Source: Escherichia coli
GTDB lineage: Bacteria; Pseudomonadota; Gammaproteobacteria; Enterobacterales; Enterobacteriaceae
NCBI RefSeq assembly: GCF_013122565.1
Contig: NZ_CP053258.1
Length of the DNA stretch: 64,000 nt
Strand: one strand, 5' to 3'
The position numbers and the translations under genes were made by a program. Shown one piece after another: positions 3,006 through 26,186 of this stretch; position 1 is the first letter of the stretch, and each line of letters begins with the position of its first letter. The notes beneath the pieces are model-generated. The model did no database searches. It was not told where the DNA came from and was given only the letters and a program-made list of their open reading frames with translations.

Positions 3006-3061
3006 ATATGTGTTAATGAAACCTTCTTGACGCTGATTTTTTTTCAACCTAAAGTAAAGGA

Positions 3062-3381: not shown

Positions 3382-3399
3382 ACGTTCATAGCTGAAAAT

Positions 3400-5061: not shown

Positions 5062-5087
5062 TATTAAATTTCCTTTTGATTAATAAA

Positions 5088-5717
5088 TTACAATATTTGG
5101 GGCCAGGGATTGTTTTCCGCCAAATATCGAGTTGCAGAAAGTCGGCAAATAATTAACACTTTGTCTCCTTTAGTGAAAATTTTTCCTTCTTCAGGCTCCA
5201 GTAGTAAATAATGTATTTGGCCAAATTGATCGGTGAGTTTTCCTTCGCAGGGATTACCTGAAGTGGCTTGATGACCGGTAATTAACGCCATGCTACCAAT
5301 ATATTCTTCTTCTGTAATAGCTGAACTATGATCGCGTGGAATCCAGGGCGCAACTATTTTACCGGTATAATGCACCGCAATAATCGTAAATAGTAAACTG
5401 ACAGGAACCACAAACAGGTTCGAGAGTGGTGATTGCCAGACCATGATGCAGGTATGCTGCAACAGGATGCCAATAAGACCAAAAAAACCAGCCAGTAAGC
5501 AAAGAACGACGAGAGCTGGCAATCTTCCGATATTGAGATAATGAAGTGCCTGGCTAATATGACCTGTGGTTATGGAATCATAATGGTCAAGATGTGCATC
5601 AAGTGCACCGGAGAGCATGTGACCGCAGATAAGCGCAAAAATTTCTAAAAGGCCGATCAACAGTACAAAGGAAATAGCGAAAAGATAAGGGGTGTTATAG
5701 TCGGCGAATAAAATCAT
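5088..5717 (-). CDS. yqiJ: NfeD-like inner membrane protein, partner of YqiK
   Basis: 209-aa polytopic hydrophobic ORF immediately upstream of yqiK on the same strand. Confidence 0.85.
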
Positions 5718-5985
5718 ATGTCACTCCAATGTCCATTTAGTGACGCAATATTTACTTTGGGATAGTTTCCTTGCTTACATTTATCTTTGTTAATAATAAC
5801 ACATGTTAGAGAAGTTCTGGAAGAAAAAGTCTTTTAATATGGTTTTTTATTTTTCACTAAAAAGTGTGATCGGGGACAATATATTTACGCACGTTATGTT
5901 TAAAGGCACTACACTGATTGGGGAATACTGAAATCAGAAAAAGCATATGGCCTTAAAAGGTATGCGATAACCGGAGGATGTGCTT

Positions 5986-6186
5986 ATGGATCATAGTCTT
6001 AATTCTTTAAATAACTTCGATTTCCTGGCGCGTAGTTTTGCCAGAATGCACGCAGAAGGTCGCCCGGTCGATATTCTGGCCGTTACTGGTAACATGGATG
6101 AAGAACATAGAACCTGGTTTTGCGCACGTTATGCCTGGTATTGCCAACAGATGATGCAAACCAGAGAACTTGAATTAGAACACTGA
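5986..6186 (+). CDS. glgS: Glycogen synthesis / surface-composition regulator GlgS (66 aa)
   Basis: Translation [66 protein letters not shown]; long AT-rich upstream region. Confidence 0.9.
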
Positions 6187-6190
6187 TATT

Positions 6191-6213
6191 ACGGGCCGTC
6201 TGGCCCGTTTTTG
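6191..6213. terminator. Terminator hairpin (CGGGCC gtct GGCCCG + T-run) in the convergent glgS/ubiK junction
   Basis: Perfect 6-bp GC stem followed by TTTTT; sits between the stop codons of convergent genes. Confidence 0.6.
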
Positions 6214-6220
6214 TGTTGCT

Positions 6221-6520
6221 TTATTCTGCTTTATCAATAGGCGGGATAGCCGGAGGAGATTGAAGATCTGCTACCGAATTATTGCGCGCTTCCAGTTCAC
6301 TGATGCGTTGCTCCAGTAACGCCAGTTTCTCACGAGTCCGTAACAGGACTTGCGTTTGGACGTCGAACTCTTCACGGCTTACAAGGTCGAGGCGCGTCAG
6401 CTGCGCTTGTAGGGTTTGGCGGATTTTTTTCTCCACATCTTCCCCGAACTCCCTGATTCCTTTAGGCATTGATTCGTGAACCTGGCGAGCGATTTGCTCA
6501 ATTTTTTTCGGGTCAATCAT
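6221..6520 (-). CDS. ubiK: Ubiquinone biosynthesis accessory factor UbiK (YqiC, BMFP family)
   Basis: ORF 6221-6580; start placed at internal Met ([13 protein letters not shown]...) to give ~99 aa; coiled-coil protein. Confidence 0.8.
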
Positions 6521-6606
6521 TGTAGTTTCCCTGTACTGATAGGTGTTGAGTGCCATTGTAGTGCGATAAGGGTAAGTCATAAACCAGAATTATGTGAAGC
6601 TATGCG

Positions 6607-6635
6607 TTGCTGCCGCTAATCATTAGCGTTATAGT
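6607..6635 (+). promoter_or_regulatory. Putative ribB promoter (-35 TTGCTG, 17-bp spacer, -10 TATAGT)
   Basis: Hexamers with canonical spacing just upstream of the riboswitch aptamer. Confidence 0.5.
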
Positions 6636-6644
6636 GAATCCGCT

Positions 6645-6795
6645 TATTCTCAGGGCGGGGCGAAATTCCCCACCGGCGGTAAATCAACTTGGTTGAAAGC
6701 CCGCGAGCGCTTTGAGTGCGAACTCAAAGGACAGCAGATCCGGTGTAATTCCGGGGCCGACGGTTAGAGTCCGGATGGGAGAGAGTAACGATTCT
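6645..6795 (+). promoter_or_regulatory. FMN riboswitch (RFN element) in the ribB leader; boundaries approximate
   Basis: Conserved RFN core: GGGCGGGGCGAAATTCCCCACCGGCGGTAAA...CCGGGGCCGACGGTTAGAGTCCGGATGGGAGAG upstream of ribB. Confidence 0.85.
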
Positions 6796-6893
6796 GTCGG
6801 GCATGGACCCGCTCACGTTATTTTGGCTATATGCCGCCACTCCTAAGACTGCCCTGATTCTGGTAACCATAATTTTAGTGAGGTTTTTTTACC

Positions 6894-7547
6894 ATGAATC
6901 AGACGCTACTTTCCTCTTTTGGTACGCCTTTCGAACGTGTTGAAAATGCACTGGCTGCGCTGCGTGAAGGACGCGGTGTAATGGTGCTTGATGATGAAGA
7001 CCGTGAAAACGAAGGTGATATGATCTTCCCGGCAGAAACCATGACTGTTGAGCAGATGGCGCTGACCATTCGCCACGGTAGCGGTATTGTTTGCCTGTGC
7101 ATTACTGAAGATCGCCGTAAACAACTTGATCTGCCAATGATGGTAGAAAATAACACCAGCGCCTATGGCACCGGTTTTACCGTGACCATTGAAGCGGCTG
7201 AAGGTGTGACTACCGGTGTTTCTGCCGCTGACCGTATTACGACCGTTCGCGCAGCGATTGCCGATGGCGCAAAACCTTCTGATCTGAATCGCCCTGGCCA
7301 CGTTTTCCCACTTCGCGCGCAGGCAGGTGGTGTACTGACGCGTGGCGGTCATACTGAAGCGACTATTGATCTGATGACGCTGGCAGGCTTTAAACCGGCT
7401 GGTGTGCTGTGTGAGCTGACTAATGACGATGGCACGATGGCGCGTGCACCAGAGTGCATTGAGTTTGCCAATAAACACAATATGGCGCTCGTGACTATTG
7501 AAGACCTGGTGGCATACCGTCAGGCACATGAGCGTAAAGCCAGCTGA
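6894..7547 (+). CDS. ribB: 3,4-dihydroxy-2-butanone 4-phosphate synthase
   Basis: 217-aa ORF matching RibB as remembered ([17 protein letters not shown]). Confidence 0.95.
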
Positions 7548-7580
7548 AAACCGCTGCTTAATTTACTGCCTTAATCAAGA

Positions 7581-7614
7581 AACCGAAGTTGTAGCAGGCT
7601 TCGGTTTTTATTTT
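7581..7614 (+). terminator. Intrinsic terminator after ribB
   Basis: Stem AACCGAAG / CTTCGGTT followed by TTTTTATTTT. Confidence 0.7.
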
Positions 7615-7808
7615 GCCCTGCTATGCAAGATGTTAATTCCGCTTCTCTTTCTATGAGAAAATTTCATTAATATCAGGCATTCTTTTTCATTATGATCAAA
7701 ATCATATAATTGTTCCGTTATTATGCGACCATATGAATATATCCGAAAAAGGATATGTGAAATTTATGCGCTAAATGTTTAGTATTGTTAAATATTAAGG
7801 GTAAAAGG

Positions 7809-7979
7809 ATGTTTATCGCCTGGTACTGGATTGTATTGATTGCTCTGGTTGTGGTGGGTTATTTCCTGCATTTGAAACGTTATTGTCGGGCGTTTCGCCA
7901 GGACAGAGACGCACTGCTTGAAGCGCGGAACAAATACTTAAACAGTACGAGAGAAGAGACAGCTGAAAAGGTAGAATAA
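7809..7979 (+). CDS. Small hypothetical membrane protein (~56 aa): one transmembrane helix plus a charged tail
   Basis: ATG with AAGGG ribosome-binding site; translation MFIAWYWIVLIALVVVGYFLHLKRYCRAFRQDRDALLEARNKYLNSTREETAEKVE; AT-rich upstream region. Confidence 0.4.
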   Translation: MFIAWYWIVLIALVVVGYFLHLKRYCRAFRQDRDALLEARNKYLNSTREETAEKVE

Positions 7980-8036
7980 GGCTTTCGTGAAGCTGGCAGA
8001 AGTTGTCCATGCGCTGGACAACTTCTGATGTTGTTT

Positions 8037-8810
8037 TTAACCAATTCCCGCCGTTTGTAGTAGCACTAAACTGAATCCCATCACTGACATTCCACATAGT
8101 ACGCCATAGCTGGGGTTATTATTAGGGTCAATCTCTTTGGCGAGCGGCATTAATTCATCAACCGAGAGCGCCACCATAATTCCTGCAACCGCCGCCATGA
8201 TTGCCGCCATGACCACCGGGGAAATCATGCTACCGAGGATTAACCACGCCAGCACACCACCAAGAATTTCTGCCAATCCAGAAATCCCCGCCCACAGAAT
8301 TGCCGTGCGTTTAGAACCCGTTGCTGCATAAACCGGGCCTGCAACCGCCAGACCTTCAGGAATATTGTGCAACGCGACGGCCAGTGCGATGCCAAATCCC
8401 AGCTCCAGGTTGCTGCTCGCCGTGACAAAGGTGGCAATCCCTTCCGGGAAGTTATGCAGACTGATGCCGAGAGTGAGCAGAATGGCTGTGCGCTTGATCG
8501 ATTTTGGCAACGGCTGCACCGATTTTTGCATTAAATCCTGCGGATGCGCATGTGGCAACATGCGGTCCAGGCCAAAATAGCCAAGCAGACCGAAGATAAA
8601 CATTCCATAACCCAACACAGGCGACATTCCTTCAGCGGCTAGTGCGGCAGGAAGCATTTCCATTAATGAGATGAGCAACATGATCCCCGCCGCAAATCCT
8701 AGCGAAAACGCCAGTAAGCGGTTCGAGGGTTTTTGCCCGAGAACGCCGAGAAACGCGCCAATAAACGTGGCTGCCCCCGCCAGTATGGTCAGAATGAGAG
8801 GTACTGACAT
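8037..8810 (-). CDS. zupT: Zinc transporter ZupT (ZIP family)
   Basis: ORF 8037-8852; start placed at [12 protein letters not shown] (257 aa); ZIP-family HNxPEG motifs. Confidence 0.9.
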
Positions 8811-8925
8811 CGACAACTCCTTATAAATCTTCACCTTCAGGCAGATTGTCAAAATAACTGATGATCATCATCATTGTTATCCGGGTTCTTACTCCGCCGA
8901 ACAAGCGTATTGTGAGGATATCAAA

Positions 8926-9741
8926 ATGACACCTTTAGTTAAGGATATCATCATGTCTTCAACACGTATGCCAGCATTGTTTTTAGGTCACGGTAGTCCG
9001 ATGAACGTGCTGGAAGATAATTTGTATACCCGCAGCTGGCAGAAGTTGGGGATGACATTGCCACGCCCGCAAGCGATTGTGGTGGTTTCGGCTCACTGGT
9101 TTACCCGTGGAACAGGAGTGACCGCGATGGAGACGCCGCCCACGATTCATGACTTTGGTGGCTTCCCGCAGGCGCTGTACGATACGCATTATCCTGCTCC
9201 GGGTTCGCCTGCGCTGGCACAGCGTCTGGTTGAGCTGTTAGCGCCGATCCCGGTGACGCTGGATAAAGAAGCCTGGGGCTTTGACCACGGCTCGTGGGGC
9301 GTGCTGATTAAGATGTATCCTGACGCTGATATCCCGATGGTGCAGTTGAGTATCGACAGTAGCAAACCTGCCGCCTGGCATTTCGAAATGGGGCGCAAAC
9401 TGACAGCGCTGCGAGATGAAGGAATAATGTTGGTCGCCAGCGGTAACGTGGTGCATAACCTGCGCACAGTGAAGTGGCACGGTGATAGTTCACCGTATCC
9501 GTGGGCGACGTCGTTTAATGAGTATGTGAAAGCGAATCTGACGTGGCAAGGGCCAGTGGAACAACATCCTCTGGTGAATTACCTCGACCATGAAGGTGGC
9601 GCGTTATCGAACCCAACGCCAGAGCATTATCTGCCGTTGTTGTATGTGTTAGGTGCGTGGGATGGGCAGGAGCCAATTACCATTCCGGTTGAGGGTATAG
9701 AAATGGGCAGCCTGAGTATGCTGTCGGTGCAGGTAGGTTAA
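8926..9741 (+). CDS. ygiD: Extradiol ring-cleavage dioxygenase class III (4,5-DOPA dioxygenase-like)
   Basis: 271-aa ORF; position between zupT and ygiC; exact start uncertain. Confidence 0.8.
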   Translation: MTPLVKDIIMSSTRMPALFLGHGSPMNVLEDNLYTRSWQKLGMTLPRPQAIVVVSAHWFTRGTGVTAMETPPTIHDFGGFPQALYDTHYPAPGSPALAQRLVELLAPIPVTLDKEAWGFDHGSWGVLIKMYPDADIPMVQLSIDSSKPAAWHFEMGRKLTALRDEGIMLVASGNVVHNLRTVKWHGDSSPYPWATSFNEYVKANLTWQGPVEQHPLVNYLDHEGGALSNPTPEHYLPLLYVLGAWDGQEPITIPVEGIEMGSLSMLSVQVG

Positions 9742-9778
9742 CAATTACCGGATGGCGAATGCCATCCGGTATCATTGA

Positions 9779-10939
9779 TTATTCAACAAAAATATGTGGA
9801 TAAAACCGAGACATATCCTGGGTGATCAATGCACGGTCTTCACGAATGCCAATTCCGGCAGGTTGATCGTTCACCAGCCAGCTACCAATCAGCATATAGC
9901 TGTCGCCGAATTTCGGTAACGGGTGGAATTGCTGAACAATCATTCCTTCTTCGCCATACGGACCTTCCGCTGCTTCAATGGTTTTGCCGTTCTCAATGAT
10001 CGACACGTTTGCGCCTTCACGGGAGAAGATTGGTTTAACCACATATTTTTCCATTTGCGGATGATCATCTTCCGCAAAATAAGCGGGCAGCAGGTTCGGG
10101 TGATTCGGGAACATCTCCCACAGTAGCGGCAGCAATGCTTTGTTGGAGATAATGCTCTTCCATGCCGGTTCCAGCCAGCGTACGCCTGCATCCTCCAGCT
10201 TGGTGGAGAACATCTCACGCAGCATAAATTCCCACGGATACAGCTTGAACAGGTTAGAAATCACCTGATCCTGTAAATCCGTGAACTGACCTTTTTCACC
10301 TAACCCGATATCGTCAATGTAGAGGAACTCGGTAGCGATTTCAGCTTCCGTCGCGCAGTCCTGCAAATACTGAATGGTTCCGCGATCTTCCACCGTGTCG
10401 CGACAGCAGGTGAGATGCAGCAACTGGAAGCCATACTGTTCACGCAGCTCAACGAAGCGATCGATCAGTTTTTCTTGCAGACTGTTAAACTGGTCGCTGC
10501 CCTCCGGCAAGTTACCGGCGTTAAGCTGATCTTCCAGCCAGATCCACTGAAAGAACGCCGCCTCGTATAGTGACGTTGGCGTATCGGCGTTATTTTCCAG
10601 AAGTTTAGGTTCGCCAGTGCCATCCCACGCCAGATCAAGACGCGAATAAAGCGATGGCTGGTGCGTCAGCCATGACTGGCGCACAAAACTCCAGGTGTGT
10701 TTTGGAATGCGGAATTTGGTCATCAGCTCATCGCTGGCGATCACTTTTTCCACCACTTTCAGGCACATCTGGTGCAGTTCGGCGGTGACTTCTTCCAGCT
10801 TTTCAACCTGGGCGAGGGTCAACTTGTAGTAAGCATCTTCACACCAGTACGGCTCGCCGTACATGGTGTGAAAATTGAAACCGTATTCGCGGGCTTTCTC
10901 ACGCCAGTCCGGGCGCTCGGTAATACTCACTCTTTCCAT
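9779..10939 (-). CDS. ygiC: Glutathionylspermidine synthase-like ATP-grasp protein
   Basis: 386-aa ORF; downstream of ygiB on the same strand. Confidence 0.85.
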
Positions 10940-10944
10940 CGGTA

Positions 10945-11616
10945 TCAGCCACCCATTGAACGAGAAGAGGTACCGGTTGCGCTACGCTGCATAGTGCTTT
11001 GTTTGGCAACAGATTCACCAAAACCGCCACGGGTAACGGTAGTGGTGGTCGCCGGTTTTGGTGCCATTGCCGTCTTCGGTACGGTCATGGTGCGGCCTGG
11101 CTGGGCTGCGCCATAGTTTTTACCCGTCGCGTCGGTATATTTACCGTAAGCCGGGCTGGCTGGGTTTTTCGAGGAGAACAGCGGCTGCTGTGCAAATCCC
11201 GCGCCGCCGCCCATCAGACGCCCCATCATGTAACCGGCCATCAGCGGCATCCAGAAACTCCCGCTGGATTGCTGAGCCTGCGCCTGGTTTTCTGGTGCCA
11301 TGCCAGCCTGGGCTGGTGCTTGCTGGCACTGACCTTCACCAAATTCAGCAACACAGTCTTCACGGGTGGCGTATTTCGGCGCAGTACGTTCGGCTTCTTT
11401 CAGCGCATTGTTGTACGCGGTGGTACATTCGGCGCTTTTGCCTGGGTTTGCAGCTGAACAGTCGTCAGCATTTTGATAGAGAGACACTGTTTCATCACTC
11501 TTTTCACAGCCAGCCAGCATAAAAACAGTGGCAACCGCGAGAGCGACTGGTGTCAGATGGCGTGCGCTCCAGTTTTTGCGGAACGATGCGTGGCGTATGG
11601 ATTTTGTCCGTTTCAT
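10945..11616 (-). CDS. ygiB: DUF1190-family protein
   Basis: ORF 10945-11649; start placed at MKRTKSIRH (223 aa). Confidence 0.8.
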
Positions 11617-11763
11617 TTTTGTCTTCCGGGACCAGTGGTAAATACCCATCAGAATAGAGGATGGCTGGTCGAAATTGAAGCGAGAAGGGGGAAGAATGCG
11701 GCAGATAACCCGTATCTTTACGTTGCCTTACGTTCAGACGGGGCCGAAGCCCCGTCGTCGTCA

Positions 11764-13245
11764 TCAGTTACGGAAAGGGTTATGACCGTTACTGGTGGTA
11801 GTGCGTGCGGATGTTTGCTGAACGACGGGTGCCGGGCTATCAGGCGCATAACCATCAGCAATAGCATTCTGTTCCGGCGTTTGCGGGGCAACGTTTTCCG
11901 GATTAGTGGAAACCGGTTTGCTCAGCGCATTGTTCAGTGCCAGCAGATCCTGCTCGTTCAACGTACCCAAGGCTGACTTAATATTCAGCTGATTAATCAG
12001 GTAGTTATAACGCGCATTCGCCAGCTCTTGCTTGGCGTTGTACAGCGTGGTGGTCGCATCCAACACATCAACAATGGTACGCGTACCGACCGAGTAGCCC
12101 GCTTCCATCGCGTCTAATGAGCTTTGAGCGGAAACTACGGCTTGTTTGTAGGCGTTAATGCTACTGATAGAAGCATTAATGTTGTTGAAGGAGGAACGTA
12201 CGGTTTGCACGACGCTGCGATGCGCGCTTTCCAGTTGCTCGCTGGCACCGACAAAGTTGTACTGGGCCTGTTTCACCTGCGAGTTAACCATTCCGCCCTG
12301 ATAAATCGGCAGCGAGAAGCTCAGGCCAACTTTGTTCTGGCCCATATTGCTATCGTCATACTGGGTACCAGCGGCACCACGGGTTTTCGAACCGCTATAA
12401 GAGGTGTCAGAAATCCCGGTAGAAGCCGTTAAATCCAGAGTCGGTAAGTGACCATCCTGCGCCTGGCGAATTTGCTCGCGCGCCAGGTCCTGGCTCAAGC
12501 GTGCCTGTAACAGCGACAGGTTGCGTTTTTCGGCTTCTTTCAGCAGCGCGTTAACCGGCTGTGGTTTGTCGGTTTTAAAGTTTTCGACATTCAGCGCCGC
12601 CAGTTCCGGATAGTAGTTACCGGTGATCTGGCGCAGCTGCTCTACCGCGTTATCAAGGTTATTACGTGCGGTCACTTCGTTCGCCAGCACGGTATCGTAC
12701 TGCGCGCGGGCGTTCTGCACGTCGGTGATCGCTACCAGGCCCACGTTAAAACGTTGGGTGGTTTGATCTAATTGACGGTAGATCGCTTCTTTTTGCGCCT
12801 GTGTATAGGAAAGAACGTCAATAGCATTCAACACGTTGAAATAAGCGGTCGCGGTGTTGAGGATCAAGGTTTGCTGATCGGTCTGATACGTGACGTCCTG
12901 AATCCCTGCTGCTTTTTCCTGCAGCGTTAACGCACGCCATTTCGACATATCAAAAATGGATTGAGTTAACTGCAGGGACGCACTGGTCGCGTTAGAGTTG
13001 ATGCCGTTCGCGTCGCGGTAGCCGTTGCTATAGGTGTAATCTGCACCTAAACCTAGCTGTGGCAGTAATGGACTGCGCGCTTCATTAATTTTTTCAAAGG
13101 CAGCATCACGATCGGCGGCAGATTTACGCAATTCCGGGTTACTAAGGCGTGCTTGCTGATAAACTTGCATCAGGTTCTCGGCCTGGCTCAACGAACTGAA
13201 CCCAGAAAGGCTCAGGCCGATAAGAATGGGGAGCAATTTCTTCAT
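11764..13245 (-). CDS. tolC: Outer membrane efflux channel TolC
   Basis: ORF 11764-13284; start placed at MKKLLPILIGLSLSGFSSLSQA signal peptide (493 aa). Confidence 0.95.
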   Translation of the reverse strand: MKKLLPILIGLSLSGFSSLSQAENLMQVYQQARLSNPELRKSAADRDAAFEKINEARSPLLPQLGLGADYTYSNGYRDANGINSNATSASLQLTQSIFDMSKWRALTLQEKAAGIQDVTYQTDQQTLILNTATAYFNVLNAIDVLSYTQAQKEAIYRQLDQTTQRFNVGLVAITDVQNARAQYDTVLANEVTARNNLDNAVEQLRQITGNYYPELAALNVENFKTDKPQPVNALLKEAEKRNLSLLQARLSQDLAREQIRQAQDGHLPTLDLTASTGISDTSYSGSKTRGAAGTQYDDSNMGQNKVGLSFSLPIYQGGMVNSQVKQAQYNFVGASEQLESAHRSVVQTVRSSFNNINASISSINAYKQAVVSAQSSLDAMEAGYSVGTRTIVDVLDATTTLYNAKQELANARYNYLINQLNIKSALGTLNEQDLLALNNALSKPVSTNPENVAPQTPEQNAIADGYAPDSPAPVVQQTSARTTTSNGHNPFRN

Positions 13246-17856: not shown

Positions 17857-17867
17857 TAATCTTAACC

Positions 17868-17892
17868 CGGCAAACATGTGTTTTGCCGGGTT
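17868..17892. terminator. Terminator hairpin after parE (CCCGGCAAA cat gtg TTTGCCGGG)
   Basis: 9-bp perfect palindrome with T-rich flank; lies between parE and the first islet gene. Confidence 0.6.
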
Positions 17893-17900
17893 GTCGTTGA

Positions 17901-18770
17901 TTATTTTATTGGGCACAGTTTGTTACGATCTGGAAATAGTGTTGCCAGCGAACCAGCCAGAGTTTTCCAGTCCGTAGCCATTTTTTCTGCTTGTGCAGTT
18001 GTTATTACTGCACCTTGTTGTTTAATAAGCTCATCCTCCACTCTGGTATAGTGAATAATGGTAAAATCCGTAGAGGACCATTTATCCTTAGAGAACATCT
18101 TCGTCATCGCATGAATGTTTGCTTGCCCGTCATCGATAAAAATAATCGCGTCATATTTGTTCCCCATTTTATCCAGCATATAATCGAGAATTACGCCTTT
18201 ATCTTGCCCGGAAGAAAAAAATACCCCCTGGCTGTACAGCCATGACCGTTTGAGTTTCCCTTTTTCAAAGGGTGGCAAAGTATCCTCTTTCTTCCTGAGT
18301 GCGGAAGACGAAAAATCAATGCCGTTTCGCTTTAATTCCCGCAATGTCGGAAAGAGAGTATCCGGTGCACGGGATGTCAGAGCAAAAGCGGTATGCTTTT
18401 GTTGCCACTGTTTTAACATTGTCGGTAACTGTGGCTCGGTAAGCTGCATAGGGCTAAGTTCGTAAAGCATACTGATTGTATTTTCATACAGGCAAGGAAC
18501 TTTTTGCGAGTCATCCGGCTTTAAGGGCAATTTATCGGTTTGCCATTGATACCAGATATCACCGCCAATGCGTGTGCCACTCGTTAATAACGTATTATCA
18601 ATGTCAAAAACCAATAATATCTTATCGGATGGATAGAGAGTTTCCTTTTCGGTGATAATTTTACTGACCGCACTATATTCGCCAGTAACTATATTTTTTA
18701 CCTGTGCGTAAGATAAAGCAGGCAGAGCAGAGAGCATCATCCAGAGAATGATTTTAAATTTATTATTCAT
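17901..18770 (-). CDS. Secreted HAD-superfamily phosphatase (acid phosphatase-like)
   Basis: 289-aa ORF; N-terminal signal peptide (MNNKFKIILWMMLSALPALSYAQ); HAD motif I DIDNTL; later FIDDGQ motif. Confidence 0.65.
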   Translation of the reverse strand: MNNKFKIILWMMLSALPALSYAQVKNIVTGEYSAVSKIITEKETLYPSDKILLVFDIDNTLLTSGTRIGGDIWYQWQTDKLPLKPDDSQKVPCLYENTISMLYELSPMQLTEPQLPTMLKQWQQKHTAFALTSRAPDTLFPTLRELKRNGIDFSSSALRKKEDTLPPFEKGKLKRSWLYSQGVFFSSGQDKGVILDYMLDKMGNKYDAIIFIDDGQANIHAMTKMFSKDKWSSTDFTIIHYTRVEDELIKQQGAVITTAQAEKMATDWKTLAGSLATLFPDRNKLCPIK

Positions 18771-18783
18771 TTTTTATTCCAGA

Positions 18784-19518
18784 TTAGAAAGTATAAGTCA
18801 GACCCCAGCGCCAGCGGATTTGGCGATTACTTGATGTTTTATCCACACCTTTATAATCCGCAATACTCATATAGGGTATCCACGATCCAATTTTGTACCC
18901 TACTTTAAATGATGCGGTATAGTTTTTATGGCCATCATTCCACGTTAAATAACCATTATTGTAATAGACCAGGTTTAACTGATATTGGAAGTTGGTTTTT
19001 TGTGGTCGATAGTCGATCCACACATCATAACGGCGGTTATTACGATCATCGTTGCCATAACCTTTGGATTTATCGGTGGCTTTATCCATGTCATAACGAA
19101 ACCGACCCGAAACTTTCCATTCTTTGCTGAAGTCATAACCCGCAGAAAGACCATATTCGTAAGTTGACCAATATTGCGTGGTATCAAGCCAGAACATGGG
19201 TTCTAACCAGAATTTTTTGTCATCCAGCGGCTTAAAGCGGTAAACAACAGATAATCCTGTTCCGTTATTGCCAAATTGTGAGGGGTCCCACTTATCTTTA
19301 TCACCTTCATCGGTGTTATAGCGTAATTCTCCCATCAAACCGATACCATTACTAAAAAATGTACCAAATTCAACGCGGTCCGCGTGGGTGCGAGTATCAT
19401 CAAGATACTCATGACGATAATCAATAAATCCATGCGGCTGTTCTGCACAGACTAGTGTAGGTGACAGGCAGGATAACATTGTTATTCCTGCAAGTGATAT
19501 TTTAAGATAAGAATTCAT
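18784..19518 (-). CDS. Outer-membrane beta-barrel porin, KdgM/NanC family (tentative)
   Basis: 244-aa ORF; signal peptide; Tyr/Trp/Gly-rich alternating pattern; C-terminal ...GLTYTF; IDYRHE motif near the N-terminus. Confidence 0.6.
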   Translation of the reverse strand: MNSYLKISLAGITMLSCLSPTLVCAEQPHGFIDYRHEYLDDTRTHADRVEFGTFFSNGIGLMGELRYNTDEGDKDKWDPSQFGNNGTGLSVVYRFKPLDDKKFWLEPMFWLDTTQYWSTYEYGLSAGYDFSKEWKVSGRFRYDMDKATDKSKGYGNDDRNNRRYDVWIDYRPQKTNFQYQLNLVYYNNGYLTWNDGHKNYTASFKVGYKIGSWIPYMSIADYKGVDKTSSNRQIRWRWGLTYTF

Positions 19519-19613
19519 AATATTCCCTTTCAGAATAAAATATATTTTTGGTGATCGAATACACCATCTGATGATTCCAGGTATTAGAATGTTTTTGTAT
19601 CTATAGTTTGACT

Positions 19614-20738
19614 TTAAACTTTAAGTTTGTTTTCCTTATCAATGAATAGATAAAATTTCGTCTGTTGATGGGGCTGGAAATTATTATCAGATACAAATAT
19701 TAACGATGTATGCCCATCAATCAGAGGACCGAAGGTTACCCCTTCAATACAATCCGCAGAGGAAGTGTAATCAGCAAAATCAATTAATAATTTTTTACTG
19801 ACGGGTTGTAACGTGGATTTATTGGACCAATCTTGCAGACTGTCAATATTCTTGATATCGCTGGCAGCAGTTAAATCGACCATATAAACTCTGACAGAGT
19901 AATCCCAGTCATTGAACCCAGCACTGACGTTTCTGCCGGAACGTTCGATGACCAACAATTGGTGATCATTCAGCGCCAGGACCTCGGATACGCCATTATC
20001 ATTAATACCGAACTTACTCACTTGCGGAACAGGATCAGTAATATAGAGATATTCATGCAATTGCTTTGAAGGTCGACCGTCTGCATCTATAGAAAATTGC
20101 AGTAAGCGTGCTGTGCCTGAATTTATTGGACTTGCAATAGGCCCATCCTGTTTAAGGCTGCTTTCAACGGCGATAAAAAGTGATTTTCCATCTGGTGTAA
20201 CTGTCAGGCCCTCCCAGGCGTTGCCGCTGCGAATACCATTGCTGCTCTCTTTGTCAGAACTAATATTAAAGCGAGCAGGAAATAAAGACGTAAAATCTTT
20301 CTCCATTACGCCATCGAGAGTGCTCAGACGCAGTGGAGCACCTAACTCCGAACTCCAGAGTAATGATTTACCATTGTGTGTCAGGGCCAGACCTTCGGCA
20401 TCCACCGTATTGGTCACGAAAGGCTGCTGTTTTGCATCAAGCAGTGGACGCTGGTTGAGAAAATTCACTTGCTCAATGCCCCTGGATGATACCTGTATTT
20501 TTAGTGTATAAAGACTGGCATCTCCTTCTTTATTATTGTTTCTGCTATCGTTAATAGCATAGAAAATATTTTTTTTTGCATCAAATGTGATGGCTGATAG
20601 CCCCGCGATTGTGACATTGTTCTGCTTTTCTCCCGTCCGGAAGTTAAACTCCCCAGCATAATGAAGAAAACTGTTTGCCTGCGCTGTTGTGCATAACAGC
20701 GGTAATGCCAGAAAAATAGCGGCATATCTTATTTTCAT
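19614..20738 (-). CDS. Secreted beta-propeller-like protein, phytase-like esterase family (tentative)
   Basis: 374-aa ORF; signal peptide MKIRYAAIFLALPLLCTTAQA; repeated AEGLA / EGLTVTPDG / IEGVTF motifs. Confidence 0.5.
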   Translation of the reverse strand: MKIRYAAIFLALPLLCTTAQANSFLHYAGEFNFRTGEKQNNVTIAGLSAITFDAKKNIFYAINDSRNNNKEGDASLYTLKIQVSSRGIEQVNFLNQRPLLDAKQQPFVTNTVDAEGLALTHNGKSLLWSSELGAPLRLSTLDGVMEKDFTSLFPARFNISSDKESSNGIRSGNAWEGLTVTPDGKSLFIAVESSLKQDGPIASPINSGTARLLQFSIDADGRPSKQLHEYLYITDPVPQVSKFGINDNGVSEVLALNDHQLLVIERSGRNVSAGFNDWDYSVRVYMVDLTAASDIKNIDSLQDWSNKSTLQPVSKKLLIDFADYTSSADCIEGVTFGPLIDGHTSLIFVSDNNFQPHQQTKFYLFIDKENKLKV

Positions 20739-20765
20739 GATATTTACCTTTGTATATATATGATT

Positions 20766-21680
20766 TTAGTCGTGTTGTGAAAGAAAAAGATTAACCTCCG
20801 ATGGTGTCGGCAGATGACCTCTGGCACCTAATGCAGTAATATTTATTGCTGCTGTGGCAGAAGCAAATTTTAGTGCTTCAATTAAGGGCATGTTTTTTAT
20901 TAAGCTATAAACAAATGCACCATTAAAAGTATCTCCAGCGCCTGTGGTATCAATAACGGGAATTGTATAACTACCTATTTTTACTTGCTCATTGCCTTTG
21001 ACTGCAATTACTCCCCTAACATCCAGCGTAACCACGACAGCGTCAAGTTGATACTCGTCTTGTATATCATGCAGAAGTGTAAAATCTGGCTCTGTTGCAT
21101 AGCCACGAATAAAACCGTCATAATTAAATATCGCAATATCAGCAAGGTGTAAAATTCTGGCAAGGTGTTCAGGTGTTGCAATGATATGAGGCTCAATATC
21201 AACGACAACTTTTGTCATTTGGCTACGGGAATATTCGGCCAGCATACGAAATTTCTCGATATCTGCTGGCATCGTATAAAAATAACGGCTTTGCGCAATT
21301 GCCTGCAGGGCTTTTTCTTTATCCCACTCATGATCACTACCAGGCGAGTAAACCAACGTTTTTTCACCTAATTCATCAATAAAGATAATCGCGGTATTGG
21401 CAATCAATTCCGGAATTACCTGAACGAAATCACAATTTACATGATATTTTTTAAATCCATCAAGAATGATCGAGGCTGAATGATCATTGCCCACACATGA
21501 AACAGATACCACATTGAGACCCAGTTGTCCCATCGCACAGGCACTGTTGGCGACTGTGCCGCCAGCTTGTTCACCCAGACGTGTCCCGACAACTTTACCG
21601 CCACGAGTGGGGAGTGACGGGATAGATAAAAAAATATCTATATTTCCACTGCCTAAAGCGGCGACATCAAATTTCTTCAT
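20766..21680 (-). CDS. PfkB-family carbohydrate/nucleoside kinase
   Basis: ORF 20766-21734; start placed at MKKFDVAALG with GGGAGA ribosome-binding site; PfkB signature DTTGAGDTFNGAF. Confidence 0.8.
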   Translation of the reverse strand: MKKFDVAALGSGNIDIFLSIPSLPTRGGKVVGTRLGEQAGGTVANSACAMGQLGLNVVSVSCVGNDHSASIILDGFKKYHVNCDFVQVIPELIANTAIIFIDELGEKTLVYSPGSDHEWDKEKALQAIAQSRYFYTMPADIEKFRMLAEYSRSQMTKVVVDIEPHIIATPEHLARILHLADIAIFNYDGFIRGYATEPDFTLLHDIQDEYQLDAVVVTLDVRGVIAVKGNEQVKIGSYTIPVIDTTGAGDTFNGAFVYSLIKNMPLIEALKFASATAAINITALGARGHLPTPSEVNLFLSQHD

Positions 21681-21684
21681 AGTC

Positions 21685-22683
21685 TTATTTCTCCCTATGG
21701 CTAACGCGTTGCCCGCCTGCGTCGACATAATCACAACTTAAATGCCAGCACATTTCATATAACCACTGCATGACCAGAAATAAATTGTTGGACTCACTGG
21801 CGTCAGGTATAAAACTGATTAATTCTGCTGTCGCTCCCTGTTCAACAATTGCTTTTTGGGTTGCAAGGTAAAATGGGGACTCGCAGGATGTGGCTGGTAG
21901 TAAAATATAATGCTGACCGACACCAGCCTGATGTAAGCGTAATGAATGATAAAATTCTTCCAGTGGAAGGGCTGTCGCACGAATCTGTGGGCCGCAAGAA
22001 AGTAAATTGCTCCCCGATATTGCCAGTCCCCAACTTAAGCCACTCCCAAGAAACGTTATCTCTTTTTGTTGGTAAAAATGGCGCTTCTTTTGCTGCCAGT
22101 GCTGATTAATCTGGCTAAATTTCCCTTCCAAATCCTCTTCAATCTGCAGTGGTGTTAAGCCTGGACATAATTTTTGCGCTAAGCGCAGGAGGGCATAAAG
22201 TGTGACGCTACTACTTTGCGTTGGAATACCCTGCTTATTCGCCCATGTATAGAGCATGTTTTCTGTTATTGCGCAAAATGGTGTTCCAGGGCAATTCGTC
22301 ACACCCAGCACTTGCGCGTTTGAGCATACTGCGTGGCAGAGGGCGTCAACGGTCATTGATGGTCTGCCACTTGCACTGAGAATAATGATTAACGTTTCTT
22401 TCTGATAACGGGTTAAATCAGTCTGAAGGAAATCCCACGTTTGCAATGCGTAACAAAACAGATGTGTGTATTTCCCCAGCCAGGCGGCGGCACATAGTGC
22501 CACCGTCCAGGAGTCGCCCGATCCCACTATACAGACGCGTTCAACAGCACGTTTATCGAGCTGAAAAGTAGAAAAACATTCACCCCAGATAGCTGCCAAA
22601 TGGCGTAACGATGCCGCGGTAGCATTTATTTCCTCACGAGTTTGCGCTAATGGCATAACAGGAGTACGGGCTGGCATGTTCAT
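21685..22683 (-). CDS. SIS-domain sugar-phosphate isomerase/deglycase-like protein
   Basis: 332-aa ORF; SIS motifs (VGSGDSW, SASGRPS); start codon overlaps the stop of the upstream gene by 1 nt. Confidence 0.7.
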   Translation of the reverse strand: MNMPARTPVMPLAQTREEINATAASLRHLAAIWGECFSTFQLDKRAVERVCIVGSGDSWTVALCAAAWLGKYTHLFCYALQTWDFLQTDLTRYQKETLIIILSASGRPSMTVDALCHAVCSNAQVLGVTNCPGTPFCAITENMLYTWANKQGIPTQSSSVTLYALLRLAQKLCPGLTPLQIEEDLEGKFSQINQHWQQKKRHFYQQKEITFLGSGLSWGLAISGSNLLSCGPQIRATALPLEEFYHSLRLHQAGVGQHYILLPATSCESPFYLATQKAIVEQGATAELISFIPDASESNNLFLVMQWLYEMCWHLSCDYVDAGGQRVSHREK

Positions 22684-23759
22684 TATTTCTCCTGTGCCTG
22701 TAATGCAAGCAATGTCAGACCCGATGCGATCGCTTCAATATCGAAATCTTTATTATTTACGGCGCGGAAAAAGGCATATTTATCTTCAGGGAGCGCATCA
22801 AAACCGCGCCATGCCCCTGCAATTGCGCCTGCCATCGTAGCGATGCTATCGGTGTCATTGCCAATATTGGCGCAGGCATGAATGGTTTCCCAGGGTTCTC
22901 CTTTGCAGTACAGCAATAGACCGATTGCCGCAGGAATGGATTCATGGGCGGCAACAGAGTTACCAACCAAACCTTCCATTTCTCGCAGACAAGACTCCAG
23001 GTCATTGGCTCGTCTGGCGATGTCCGCTGCAAGTTGGATGCGCATGGCGATAGATGGCCCTGCGACACATCGTGCATATTGTTTGGCCAGGCGTTCGCCG
23101 TAATTCGCTCCCCAGATTGCGGCGTCCAGTAATGATGTGAGCGAGGCTTCTGGTAACATAGCTTGTGATGTCGCCGCAGCGATGGCGCAAGCGCTGGCAA
23201 TCGCAATATTGGTGTCATGCGAAGGTAGGCAAGTTATTAGCGCCAGGTGACACGCTTTTTCTTTCTTGCCTGGCCAGATCAATCCTGCCGGGGCTACACG
23301 CATTCCTGCGCCGTTCGTGGTGCCGACATTGGGTGCCTGACGAGAAGATGTTCCAATACGCCCAATGGTGTTTGTTGGTCTACCTTCTTTTAGTGCCTTG
23401 ACGATTTGTTCTGTTGTGGGGCCTTTATAATTTGCGTAGGGCTGCATATCGGCCCAACGCAGAAGACAAGCTAACCAGTCATTATTGGTGAAGTTATCAA
23501 ATCCAGCCTCAATTAACCCTTCTGAAAATACATACATTTGGCTGGAATCGTCGGTAATAAGTCCCGCAATACCATTTAATGAGCCAGCAAAGGTATCGGC
23601 AGGAGGAGAAACAAAGGCATTTAAAAAACCTCCCCATTGCGCTTTTATTTCATCAATGCTGTAGAGTTCAGTCGCTGCGCCTAATGCATCGCCCATACCC
23701 GCGCAGGCTAAAGAACCTAATATTTTGTTATAAATTACGGCTTGTTCTATTTTGTTCAC
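22683..23759 (-). CDS. ADP-ribosylglycohydrolase-family protein
   Basis: 358-aa ORF; N-terminal GMGDALGAATE and C-terminal GNDTDSIATMAG motifs typical of the family. Confidence 0.75.
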   Translation of the reverse strand: MNKIEQAVIYNKILGSLACAGMGDALGAATELYSIDEIKAQWGGFLNAFVSPPADTFAGSLNGIAGLITDDSSQMYVFSEGLIEAGFDNFTNNDWLACLLRWADMQPYANYKGPTTEQIVKALKEGRPTNTIGRIGTSSRQAPNVGTTNGAGMRVAPAGLIWPGKKEKACHLALITCLPSHDTNIAIASACAIAAATSQAMLPEASLTSLLDAAIWGANYGERLAKQYARCVAGPSIAMRIQLAADIARRANDLESCLREMEGLVGNSVAAHESIPAAIGLLLYCKGEPWETIHACANIGNDTDSIATMAGAIAGAWRGFDALPEDKYAFFRAVNNKDFDIEAIASGLTLLALQAQEK

Positions 23760-23772
23760 AATATTCTCTCTG

Positions 23773-24525
23773 TTACACGCTAAAACTGTCTTTTGTAATT
23801 CGTGCTTTGTAGGAGTACCGACTTGCGGGATAAACCATCTCTACATACTCCATTGGTTTGCGTTCCACGGATAACGTGACGCGGGTACAACTTAATACGA
23901 CGTCATCGGCAGTCAGTTCCAGTAATTGACGCTCAAGAGGCGAGGGAAGTCGGGCAGAGATAATTTCCGTTGCTTCTAAAGGTTTAATAGCGAGTTTTTC
24001 TTCCAGTAAAATATAGAGGGAACCCGTCGCCAGCAGCTCTTCCTGAGTTATTTCTTGTCCGTCATTTAACGCAAGCCATGATGTCTGAATACCCAGCGGC
24101 GTACTTCCCATATAGCGAATGCGTTTTATACAGAAAACGGTATGGACATGGATATCAAGTTCGAGATTTTTTCTGATAATATCACTTAGAGGAATATAAC
24201 CTATTTCAAGAATATTCTGTGCAGGTACGCCGCCACGAGCCTTAATGTCATCAGTAAAACTATGTAATAAATGATTTTCCCGACTGCGAGCCGGTAATGT
24301 AAATGTTCCTTGCCCGTGGACACTATGCAGGTATCCGCGTTGTTTCAAACTTTCTATTGCTTTCCGAATTGTTGTTCTGCTGCTTAAAAAATGTTCAGCA
24401 AGTTCTCTTTCTGTTGGTATAGCTTTGCCTTCTTTCCATTCACCGTTATCAATCTTTTTCTTTATTTCATCAAAAATTTCACGATGCTTAAGCTGACCTT
24501 TACTGGCTTTATAAATTCTTATCAT
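23773..24525 (-). CDS. GntR/HutC-family transcriptional regulator (winged-HTH + UTRA domain)
   Basis: 250-aa ORF; N-terminal HTH (PTERELAEHFLSSRTTIRKAIESL); first gene of the minus-strand cluster, divergent from the transporter. Confidence 0.8.
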   Translation of the reverse strand: MIRIYKASKGQLKHREIFDEIKKKIDNGEWKEGKAIPTERELAEHFLSSRTTIRKAIESLKQRGYLHSVHGQGTFTLPARSRENHLLHSFTDDIKARGGVPAQNILEIGYIPLSDIIRKNLELDIHVHTVFCIKRIRYMGSTPLGIQTSWLALNDGQEITQEELLATGSLYILLEEKLAIKPLEATEIISARLPSPLERQLLELTADDVVLSCTRVTLSVERKPMEYVEMVYPASRYSYKARITKDSFSV

Positions 24526-24707
24526 GACAAAGCCTCATTTCAAGTGGTTGATACCAACTCTACATTCTTTTATTTTTATTGCGCAGTATGCTTCTTTGTT
24601 ATCTGTGATATAAAACAGAAAAAACCACATTTATTATTAAAAATCATTCAGTTAAATGAGATTGGTTTTTATGTGATGCTGCTCAATATTAACTCAGTGG
24701 TTTGTTG

Positions 24708-24719
24708 TGGTATCTACCA
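24708..24719. promoter_or_regulatory. Palindrome TGGTATCTACCA in the divergent promoter region; candidate GntR/HutC operator
   Basis: Perfect inverted repeat TGGTA-tc-TACCA between the regulator and transporter genes. Confidence 0.4.
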
Positions 24720-24811
24720 ATGCATTTATTCTCACTCGTAAAGTTATGTGCTGAATGAGTTCCGATACATTTGTTTTTAATATAATTTCACGTGATCAAT
24801 GAGTGCTGTGT

Positions 24812-26143
24812 ATGAAACTGACAATAAATGAAAAGATAGGTTTTGGTGCCGGTGATATGGCTATTGCGATAGTAATGATGTCTTTAGCCATGATCATCAC
24901 TTATTTTTACACGGATGTATTTGGTCTGAAACCCGTCGACTTAGGTATTCTGTTATTTTCTGTACGTATCCTTGATGCTGTGATTGATCCAGTTGTGGGA
25001 ACAATGACAGACAGAACGAATACACGTTGGGGAAAATATCGGCCGTGGTTGCTTTTTATGTCAATACCGTTTGGGATAAGCATTTGGTTGATGTTCACCA
25101 CACCTGATACCGATTATTCAGTTAAGCTTTTATGGGCCTGGGCTACCTATGTGTTACTTACCTTGACCTATACGTTAATCGCTATTCCTTATGTTTCATT
25201 AATCAGCGTTATCACGGATGATCCACAAGAGCGATTGAGCGCCAATGGTTATCGTTTTGTTATGACAAAAATTGCCATGTTCGCCGTAACAATTATTGTT
25301 CCTTTATCTGCAATGTATCTTGGGAAGAATAACGTACAACTGGGTTATCAAATAGCAATGGGGGCAATGGGAATTCTGGCAACGTGTTTATGCCTGTATT
25401 GTTTTTTTAGCGTGAGAGAGCGCATCTACCATCCAAAACCCAGTCTCGGTATGGCCGCGCAGTTTCGGTTACTGATCAAAAATGATCAATGGCTCATTTT
25501 GGGCGCTGTAATTGCGATCATTATGTTTGGCGGGATTATTCGTAACTCTGTCGCTGCATATTATGCAAAATATTACCTGAATGGTGGGGATGCTTTAATT
25601 TCACCGTTTTTAACTTCAGGCGTGATCGCCTCTGTTCTGGCTATGATCGCTTGTACCTGGCTTACTCGACTCTACGACAAAATAAAAATATTTCGTTATA
25701 CCCAATTACTGGCGTTCGTGGTGGGTGGTGCGATGTATTTCGTGCAACCAAATTCTATAGTGTTAGCTTTTACATTTTATATTGTGGTGACCTTCCTGAC
25801 GGATATTCAGCTTCCCATTTATTGGGCATCCATTGCTGAGTCCGTGGATTACGGTGAAATGAAAACGGGGCAACGTGTTTCTGGCCTGGCATTTGGCGGG
25901 ATTCTCTTTTTCCAAAAGTTCGGTATGGGGCTGGCAGGGGGCTTTATCGGAATCGCTTTAGCCTATTTGGATTATCAACCTGGTGTAGAACAAACACCAC
26001 AGGCGCTGTGGGGGATCTGCCTGTTAATGACGATCATTCCCGCGATACTTAACCTGATTACCGGACTCATCATGCGATTTTATCTGATTAATAATGAATT
26101 TTACGAACAGATTAAAGCACGGTTACAGACGGCGGAAGAGTGA
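24812..26143 (+). CDS. GPH-family (glycoside-pentoside-hexuronide) cation symporter
   Basis: ORF 24803-26143 with about 12 predicted transmembrane helices; N-terminal GxGxGD and RWGKYRPW motifs typical of MelB/YicJ-like transporters; start uncertain. Confidence 0.75.
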   Translation: MKLTINEKIGFGAGDMAIAIVMMSLAMIITYFYTDVFGLKPVDLGILLFSVRILDAVIDPVVGTMTDRTNTRWGKYRPWLLFMSIPFGISIWLMFTTPDTDYSVKLLWAWATYVLLTLTYTLIAIPYVSLISVITDDPQERLSANGYRFVMTKIAMFAVTIIVPLSAMYLGKNNVQLGYQIAMGAMGILATCLCLYCFFSVRERIYHPKPSLGMAAQFRLLIKNDQWLILGAVIAIIMFGGIIRNSVAAYYAKYYLNGGDALISPFLTSGVIASVLAMIACTWLTRLYDKIKIFRYTQLLAFVVGGAMYFVQPNSIVLAFTFYIVVTFLTDIQLPIYWASIAESVDYGEMKTGQRVSGLAFGGILFFQKFGMGLAGGFIGIALAYLDYQPGVEQTPQALWGICLLMTIIPAILNLITGLIMRFYLINNEFYEQIKARLQTAEE

Positions 26144-26186
26144 ATATAAATGGCCGGCAAACAGCACCGGCCTCTTTTCAGGAATG

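Follow-up and report, generated by a model that had tools for sequence, protein, structure and literature searches.

A putative envelope module for nucleotide-type substrates in a mobile, GntR/HutC-linked islet of Escherichia coli

What substrate unites a small outer-membrane channel and two exported, putatively phosphoester-cleaving proteins encoded by three consecutive genes of an Escherichia coli chromosome? These genes (hereafter the triad) lie on the minus strand of a 64,000-nucleotide stretch of contig NZ_CP053258.1 (assembly GCF_013122565.1), analysed here as the window, and encode a DUF2608 (PF11019) protein of HAD fold, a KdgM-family channel and a PF13449 "phytase-like" beta-propeller. 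They form the tail of an islet of eight genes, 8.3 kb of foreign-looking DNA (17857-26186) between parE and ygiN, in the chromosomal order tolC-nudF-yqiB-cpdA-yqiA-parE, islet, ygiN-mdaB-qseCB. On the minus strand a GntR/HutC regulator gene is followed by those for an ADP-ribosylglycohydrolase-family (ARH) protein, a SIS protein and a PfkB kinase, and then by the triad; the gene for a GPH (glycoside-pentoside-hexuronide:cation) symporter diverges from this seven-gene array on the plus strand. As the spacing within the array ranges only from a 1-bp overlap to 95 bp, the seven genes probably form one operon. In our judgement it is somewhat probable that the triad supplies the envelope functions of a mobile system, controlled by the GntR/HutC regulator, through which the cell uses an extracellular phosphorylated ribosyl compound of nucleotide type. 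The initial annotation had proposed that an unspecified charged, phosphorylated substrate enters through a dedicated channel and is dephosphorylated before GPH-mediated import. This outline gains support from the linkage of porin and propeller genes across species, from the alternation of two kinds of third gene beside them, and from a shared operator motif; the gene context goes further, pointing specifically to a nucleotide or riboside.

When homologues of all three triad proteins were followed to their contigs, porin and propeller genes were found linked, in rearranged gene orders, in 11 loci representing seven genera plus two further records: E. coli, Klebsiella oxytoca, an Enterobacter sp., Kosakonia, Trabulsiella, Vibrio vulnificus, V. 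harveyi, V. mediterranei, a Yersinia frederiksenii plasmid, the record CP158823.1 and a metagenomic contig. All eight islet genes are present, in differing orders, in E. coli, K. oxytoca and Enterobacter sp. BIGb0383. Seven are present, with only DUF2608 missing, in Kosakonia oryzendophytica, Trabulsiella odontotermitis, the Yersinia plasmid and CP158823.1 (L090), and in each of these four loci the gene immediately downstream of the propeller gene encodes a secreted UshA-type 5'-nucleotidase/UDP-sugar hydrolase (664 and 650 bits against the UshA model for Kosakonia and Trabulsiella, with a curated cutoff of 600; the Yersinia gene is annotated ushA). The V. vulnificus locus comprises PfkB-SIS-ARH genes, a four-gene Bmp-family ATP-binding cassette (ABC) transporter replacing the GPH symporter, a GntR gene, a Tsx channel, porin, propeller and 5'-nucleotidase. 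Porin, propeller and DUF2608 genes stand alone in V. harveyi and V. mediterranei, and the metagenomic contig (L091) carries porin, propeller and 5'-nucleotidase. Hence the third gene is of the DUF2608 type in five of the 11 loci and of the UshA type in the other six, and no locus has both. This alternation is the strongest argument for viewing the DUF2608 protein as a likely periplasmic nucleotidase.

The accessory genes of these loci are themselves related to nucleosides. Tsx-like nucleoside channels, 66% identical to each other, are encoded in the Enterobacter and V. vulnificus loci, adenosine-deaminase-family genes in those of K. oxytoca, Kosakonia and CP158823.1, and an XapX-domain open reading frame (ORF) in that of Yersinia. 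Together with the Bmp-type transporter, these gene assignments lend support to a nucleotide-type substrate.

The regulatory sequences appear to bind the loci together in a similar manner. Palindromes of the form TGGT-N4-ACCA, which resemble operators of the HutC type (HutC/DasR-like), occur five times in the window against an expectation of 0.63, and two of the five fall within the 277-bp region between the divergent GntR and GPH genes. One of these 12-mers, TGGTATCTACCA, recurs identically three times in the K. oxytoca locus. K. oxytoca, Enterobacter, Kosakonia and Trabulsiella have paired sites, 154-179 bp apart, in their counterparts of this region; K. oxytoca has two such pairs, one of them upstream of a deaminase-porin-DUF2608 operon. 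In V. vulnificus, V. harveyi and V. mediterranei the porin gene is preceded, at a distance of 30-70 bp, by one site. The candidate operator is therefore present in all eight species searched, including two in which a stand-alone triad is unlinked from the regulator gene. Because this shared motif precedes it, the triad is apparently in one regulon with the cytoplasmic genes, even at loci where the two are unlinked. A general scan of the islet for promoters and terminators gave matches that were fewer than, or no more than, those in shuffled sequences. Separately, the 95 bp that separate the propeller gene from the porin gene contain an inverted repeat at about 19549-19566, which reads TGGTGT-N6-TCACCA along the coding (minus) strand. 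It could serve as an operator internal to the array or form a hairpin in the mRNA, and is probably not conserved, as the matching gap in Enterobacter is only 35 bp.

Two of the loci also reveal how the system spreads. The Yersinia copy (L093, 3485-12711) is on a mobilizable 254-kb plasmid, NZ_MT039225.1, and the CP158823.1 copy (2536-12786) on a 78.7-kb record. Each consists of a deaminase or XapX gene with GPH, porin, GntR, ARH, SIS, PfkB, propeller and UshA genes, and each is flanked by insertion sequence (IS) elements. As both carry the whole system between IS elements, the module moves horizontally as a unit. Its range is nevertheless limited to the Enterobacterales/Vibrio clade of PF13449, as none of approximately 75 loci of more distant PF13449 homologues (Rhizobium, cyanobacteria, Bacteroidota) has islet genes nearby. 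The Enterobacter sp. BIGb0383 locus is followed, immediately downstream of its kinase end, by a neighbouring pair of ORFs of about 340 codons each (L008, 1414-3458) that have no NCBIfam match and could be further lineage-specific components.

Where the triad's products act was judged from their N-termini. All three ORFs are exact and intact, and all three N-termini have the classical Sec layout of a basic n-region, a hydrophobic h-region and small residues at -3/-1, with predicted cleavage at SYA|QV after residue 22 of the DUF2608 protein, VCA|EQ after residue 25 of the porin and AQA|NS after residue 21 of the propeller. The calls were made by a hand-written rule, rather than by SignalP or another trained predictor, and under the same rule this layout is absent from the five other islet proteins. 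The earlier description of three consecutive genes with signal peptides is thereby upheld, as are the three family assignments. However, the same description had called the enzymes secreted, and they have a Sec signal only, with no hint of export past the outer membrane; both would therefore be periplasmic.

The porin matches Pfam PF06178 (KdgM) at 1.7e-30 over residues 31-244, and 213 of its residues (32-244) align with the 12-stranded KdgM crystal structure 4fqe at an E-value of 2.4e-11; NanC did not match in the PDB sequence search at E<=1. A crude amphipathicity scan found eight clear strands, where 12 are expected from the 4fqe alignment. Its C-terminus reads ...TYTF, and the terminal residue is F or W in all ten orthologues. 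Those from Klebsiella, Enterobacter, Kosakonia, Trabulsiella and four Vibrio species are 54-80% identical to the islet protein. From E. coli to Vibrio, nine Arg/Lys residues are invariant across the subfamily, which would fit the known preference of KdgM-family channels for acidic sugars and other acidic solutes (PMC4849052) and suggests an anion-selective channel. Hence the proposal that the substrate is too charged for general porins is partly borne out, in that an anionic character is suggested, whereas the accompanying proposal that it is too large for them is unsupported. The gene context argues for an anionic substrate other than oligogalacturonates or acidic sugars.

The 289-residue protein matches PF11019 at 3.9e-60, with additional weak HAD matches. 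Its model contains the Rossmannoid core fold, and an alignment of 42 homologues reveals intact catalytic motifs: motif I reads LVFD56-I-D58-N-T60-LL, with D56, D58, N59 and T60 invariant, T132/S133 of motif II are nearly invariant, and K191 of motif III and D213-D214 of motif IV are invariant. The original assignment to the HAD enzymes consequently stands. Cysteines C93 and C286 are also invariant, which would be consistent with a disulfide bond in the periplasm. In structure the model is similar to class B and C acid phosphatases, both periplasmic and lipoprotein ones, with the best matches in class C, but the corresponding profiles (PF03767, HAD-IIIB) gave only an Acid_phosphat_B match at E 1.5; since the likeness is structural only, and the profile match not significant, DUF2608 is kept here as a separate HAD family. 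PDB searches with the single sequence and with a 42-sequence profile returned nothing significant, the only marginal match being the HAD phosphatase domain of Pnkp1 (E 0.009). DUF2608 was not mentioned in the literature searched, and a stand-alone copy in V. splendidus has an unrelated gene context. Together with its alternation with UshA, these features make the protein a likely periplasmic phosphatase or nucleotidase.

The third protein is the least straightforward. Its match to PF13449 (8.8e-68, residues 44-354) is the only one returned by a Pfam scan even at E<=10, such that the PF02333 phytase profile does not match, and its fold is not a six-bladed propeller close to those of the Bacillus phytases. 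Rather, the model (predicted local distance difference test score, pLDDT, 91.7) has 20 strands, enough for five four-stranded blades, and is structurally similar to a Ca-activated nucleotidase, among other five-bladed propellers. The initial label of a phytase-like protein accordingly needs correcting, as this is not a true phytase. PDB sequence searches from the single sequence and a 42-sequence profile gave nothing significant. Many acidic residues (D64, D113, E115, E131, E176, E192, D198, E265, D329, E332 and D351) and three arginines are invariant in the family alignment. Relatives 35-36% identical in the PF13449 domain carry fused domains: those of Kushneria and Lamprocystis an Endonuclease/Exonuclease/Phosphatase (EEP) domain, that of Nostoc a genuine PF02333 phytase domain together with RTX repeats. 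In another locus (L092, 1776-7418), a 42%-identical homologue is placed between two glycerophosphodiester phosphodiesterase (GDPD) genes, in the company of genes for a solute-binding protein, a HAD protein and a UgpC-like ATPase; the family may act on phosphodiesters more generally. A Nodularia family member adjoins a metallophosphoesterase and is strongly induced (~45-fold) by P limitation (PMC9846622). No biochemistry was found in literature naming PF13449 or its annotation. From the fusions, neighbourhoods and P-limitation response, the islet propeller is a putative Ca-dependent phosphodiesterase or pyrophosphatase.

The remaining islet genes would supply import and cytoplasmic catabolism. 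The symporter scores 351 bits against TIGR00792 (cutoff 231). A gap of 27 bp separates the kinase gene from the propeller gene, which follows it in the same orientation; the kinase matches the NCBIfam ribokinase model at 3.8e-43, under the curated cutoff, and its best PDB matches are ribokinases at 1e-31. The ARH-family hydrolase matches DraG in NCBIfam at 1.4e-10, and MJ1187 (3e-21) and ARH3 (1e-9) in the PDB, and is 68-79% identical across Enterobacterales and V. vulnificus. The SIS protein has weak matches to the GlmS isomerase domain, FrlB and NagB-II, and to the putative phosphosugar isomerase 3fkj at 6.6e-6. Both it and the GntR/HutC gene are kept in the loci with cytoplasmic genes, the SIS protein at only 30-48% identity.

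These assignments can be arranged into a pathway, of which the two enzymatic reactions, the sequence of events and the kind of substrate are our inferences. An anionic substrate would cross the outer membrane through the arginine-rich channel, and in the periplasm the propeller would cut a phosphodiester or pyrophosphate linkage. The remaining monoester phosphate would be taken off by the DUF2608 phosphatase, or elsewhere by the UshA-type 5'-nucleotidase, and the resulting neutral riboside would enter through the GPH symporter, or the Bmp-type nucleoside transporter in V. vulnificus. The ARH-like hydrolase and ribokinase-like kinase would then split and phosphorylate the riboside, with the SIS protein performing a sugar-phosphate step and adenosine deaminase handling the base in some species. 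Candidate substrates are dinucleotides of the nicotinamide adenine dinucleotide (NAD) or ADP-ribose type, RNA-derived nucleotides, and nucleotide sugars. The dinucleotides would fit the ARH-family enzyme best, because ARH3 and MJ1187 are its nearest solved relatives.

Several observations weigh against this pathway. The proposed enzyme activities, localisations and role in growth are read throughout from sequences and predicted structures, and the signal peptides depend on a hand-written rule. The nearest solved structures to the propeller are YjiK and glutaminyl cyclases, not phosphoesterases, and Foldseek matched its model to generic propellers only, at template modelling (TM) scores of 0.3-0.4, such that a non-phosphoesterase role is conceivable. 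Moreover, UshA by itself cleaves both pyrophosphate and 5'-monoester bonds, leaving the need for a propeller beside it unexplained. Simple riboside catabolism would not by itself call for a SIS protein, nor is the step of this protein explained by an ADP-ribose- or NAD-type substrate. GPH transporters are not known as nucleoside carriers. Lastly, the Kosakonia adenosine deaminase passes the cutoff for the housekeeping add gene, and may adjoin the locus by chance.

The structural neighbours of the propeller raise the alternative that the third gene, whether DUF2608 or UshA-type, encodes the only phosphatase, with the propeller being another enzyme (a lyase, cyclase, lactonase or glycosidase-like protein) or serving in substrate capture. 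We consider this distinctly unlikely, given that its relatives are fused to EEP and true phytase domains and lie beside GDPD/Ugp-like genes and beside a metallophosphoesterase induced by P limitation, and that its many invariant Asp/Glu residues are typical of Ca-dependent propeller phosphoesterases. The triad might instead be a phosphate scavenger that frees inorganic phosphate from organic phosphates in the periplasm, only loosely tied to the carbon-catabolic genes, as it occurs without cytoplasmic partners within 10 kb in V. harveyi, V. mediterranei and, in its UshA-type form, the metagenomic contig; furthermore, PF13449 proteins are abundant in P-limited cyanobacteria, including the member with ~45-fold induction. 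Yet these stand-alone triads share the HutC-type operator with the catabolic loci, and the E. coli triad closely follows the kinase gene in an array headed by a GntR gene. Neither is there a Pho-box-like site upstream in E. coli or V. harveyi: matches to CTGTCAT-N4-CTGTCAT with up to three mismatches were at or below chance in the window and the V. harveyi locus, and none was promoter-placed. Pho control of the triad is thus unsupported, and we regard phosphate scavenging as quite improbable.

Two readings follow from family names. Use of phytate or other inositol phosphates, in which the porin would admit inositol hexakisphosphate and the propeller and HAD enzyme would strip its phosphates, is suggested by the name "phytase-like", by the Nostoc fusion to a genuine phytase, and by a weak match of the kinase to IolC (5.5e-24); it was rejected on gene context, and we give it very little credence. 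Similarly, membership of the KdgM family, with KdgM itself as the best PDB match, could mean that the porin imports acidic oligosaccharides of the oligogalacturonate or sialic-acid type, as KdgM and NanC do, and that the two enzymes are passengers. However, pectin or sialic-acid genes occur in none of the 11 loci, genes of this porin subfamily always accompany one for the propeller and one for a phosphatase or nucleotidase, and directly upstream of the Vibrio porin gene is the shared operator. This reading was likewise rejected on gene context, and is scarcely credible. A bolder version of the nucleotide-type pathway can also be framed, in which the triad and the ARH/SIS/PfkB core are an unrecognised mobile regulon of gut enterobacteria and marine vibrios for one ribosylated nucleotide (NAD, free or polymeric ADP-ribose, or ribosyl-ribose nucleotides from host or microbial cells), with PF13449 as a new class of Ca-dependent periplasmic pyrophosphatase/phosphodiesterase and DUF2608 as a new nucleotidase family analogous to UshA. 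So specific a proposal is tentative, and on present evidence rather unlikely.

The proposed nucleotide-type pathway is similar to the route by which Haemophilus influenzae obtains NAD and nicotinamide mononucleotide (NMN), which employs the OmpP2 porin, the NadN pyrophosphatase/nucleotidase, the class C HAD acid phosphatase e(P4) and the PnuC importer. Both would comprise a porin, a periplasmic pyrophosphatase and a HAD-fold acid phosphatase, with only the riboside crossing the inner membrane. Correspondingly, a channel, two enzymes with signal peptides and an importer are encoded in the one islet, with the linkage seen in 11 loci and the operator motif in eight species. The resemblance extends to the class C acid phosphatases being the best structural matches to the DUF2608 model, and to NadN belonging to the UshA family that replaces DUF2608 in six loci, with the nadN model appearing among the matches listed. 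However, the families differ at three of the four steps (KdgM-type channel, PF13449 propeller and GPH or Bmp-ABC importer), the islet genes are clustered and regulated together, and the product would be catabolised by the ARH-like hydrolase, kinase and SIS protein, rather than salvaged to NAD. General nucleotide scavenging in enteric bacteria and vibrios, through Tsx/OmpK channels, UshA, CpdB, AphA and NupC/NupG, likewise dephosphorylates its substrates before nucleoside import, and UshA-type enzymes and Tsx-like channels sit inside several of the orthologous loci. Yet that system consists of scattered housekeeping genes, whereas the islet is a dedicated mobile module with a single regulator, a KdgM channel and two uncharacterised families.

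Comparable combinations occur in catabolic systems. The Rus (ribose utilisation system) loci of Bacteroidetes join ribokinases to import across the outer membrane, a transporter of the inner membrane and a varying set of cleaving enzymes. Members of that set, among them phosphodiesterases, HAD enzymes and ADP-ribosylglycohydrolases, are proposed to release ribose from a range of ribosylated nutrients (bioRxiv 10.1101/574913). The islet also mixes a ribokinase-like kinase with ARH-family and HAD enzymes and a putative phosphodiesterase, although Rus uses SusC/D and belongs to another phylum, and the islet's propeller and DUF2608 families are not described there. Within E. coli, OmpL belongs to the KdgM family, and YihO and YihP to the GPH family. 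In the sulfoquinovose cassette of strain K-12, the ompL porin gene lies beside, and is co-induced with, these major facilitator superfamily transporters (PMC12608037). Hence a dedicated porin paired with a GPH transporter is not unusual for an E. coli catabolic locus, and that part of the initial annotation's claim of an unusual pairing fails; what is unusual is the addition of two periplasmic enzymes, which the ompL-yihOP cassette lacks, its substrate being sulfonated rather than phosphorylated. The cytoplasmic half is likened by its architecture to yegTUV-ggaR of K-12 and STM4065-4068 of Salmonella, each with a transporter, an ARH-family protein, a PfkB kinase and a GntR repressor, but without a SIS gene or an envelope module. 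GgaR responds to ADP-glucose in vitro (PMC10819704). The STM4065-67 locus pairs an ARH-family hydrolase with a PfkB kinase, STM4066, that phosphorylates the riboside AIRs (it is an aminoimidazole riboside kinase), and an STM4067 mutant is attenuated in the pig gut (PMC3161100). KdgM of Dickeya and NanC of E. coli share the Pfam family of the islet porin, but its genomic context is unrelated to pectin or sialic acid.

No paper combining this module's components was found in the literature searched, and what is new is a conserved, mobile and co-regulated envelope triad, drawn from two uncharacterised families, in which a HAD enzyme and a metallophosphoesterase are exchanged. If the proposed function is correct, it would provide the first functional hypotheses for DUF2608/PF11019 and PF13449, both widespread and without a characterised member in the literature searched. 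It would also be a clean case of non-orthologous replacement, of a HAD-fold enzyme and a metallophosphoesterase nucleotidase, within a conserved envelope module, and offer a handle on the substrates of yegTUV and STM4065-67, operons in which genes for an ARH-family hydrolase and a PfkB kinase stand together. The islet would then represent a strain-variable nutrient-acquisition trait, also present on the plasmids of other enterics, which may affect competition for gut niches as the related STM4067 locus does in pigs. Coordinates are collected in the table.

Table. Features of the islet in the window and corresponding sites or genes in related loci (L numbers).
Feature	Position	Strand	Length	Remarks
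DUF2608 (PF11019) HAD-fold protein, likely module nucleotidase	17901..18770	-	289 aa	
KdgM-family outer-membrane channel	18784..19518	-	244 aa	PF06178; KdgM 4fqe alignment; signal peptide
PF13449 "phytase-like" beta-propeller, putative Ca-dependent phosphodiesterase/pyrophosphatase	19614..20738	-	374 aa	
PfkB-family ribokinase-like kinase	20766..21680	-	304 aa	RefSeq start
Double-SIS phosphosugar-binding protein	21685..22683	-	332 aa	
ADP-ribosylglycohydrolase-family (PF03747) hydrolase	22683..23759	-	358 aa	
GntR/HutC-subfamily regulator	23773..24525	-		First gene of minus-strand array; NCBIfam HutC, PhnF, TreR-like, 3e-31 down
Operator-like palindrome TGGTTGATACCA	24545..24556	.		TGGT-N4-ACCA; divergent GntR/GPH intergenic region
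Second operator-like palindrome TGGTATCTACCA	24708..24719	.		TGGT-N4-ACCA; divergent GntR/GPH intergenic region
GPH-family symporter	24812..26143	+		TIGR00792 gph
TGGT-N4-ACCA sites, related loci	L002 6679, 6833, 11955, 12115; L008 7479, 7643; L009 5936, 6113			
TGGT-N4-ACCA sites, related loci	L010 5885, 6064; L088 8741, 9952; L089 9932; L007 256			
Multidomain PF13449 relatives	L039 8840-11227; L044 8711-11020; L082 9833-12961			Fused EEP or phytase domains

The composition of the islet sets it apart from its surroundings. The triad has a G+C (GC) content of 0.407, compared with 0.425 for the whole islet, 0.497 for the window and 0.48-0.56 for the flanking core genes, and GC at third codon positions is 0.38-0.42 in the triad genes against 0.49-0.63 in those core genes. 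The visible AT-richness noted at the outset is therefore confirmed, but low GC extends over the whole 8.3 kb, and is not confined to the three envelope genes. Equally AT-rich windows of the triad's length amount to 1.5% within the 64 kb, and 2.8-kb windows with a GC content below 0.44 start as far along as 43.3 kb. Elsewhere in the window, two adjacent plus-strand ORFs of about 470 codons (37850-39274 and 39320-40729) lie between ftsP and ygiQ, with no NCBIfam match at E<=0.01 and no PADLOC match, and those at 43674-44597 and 44979-45905 are also essentially unannotatable; a check of such ORFs, unrelated to the islet, for defence systems was negative.

Across the species, 408 of 5426 complete E. 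coli genomes (~7.5%) carry the islet, which is chromosomal in every case. Some copies are decaying: IS903B has inserted into that of one strain, several strains carry alleles shorter by a single base, annotated "porin | hypothetical protein", that may be frameshifts, and in strain MB06173 the islet is reduced to its first 108 bp beside parE. Between the window and strain RM10466 (L094), the triad differs by 0.6-1.2%, and the SIS, ARH, GntR and GPH part by 2-3%. As this divergence is similar to that of the core genome, it suggests that the islet has long been resident in E. coli, rather than having been acquired very recently.

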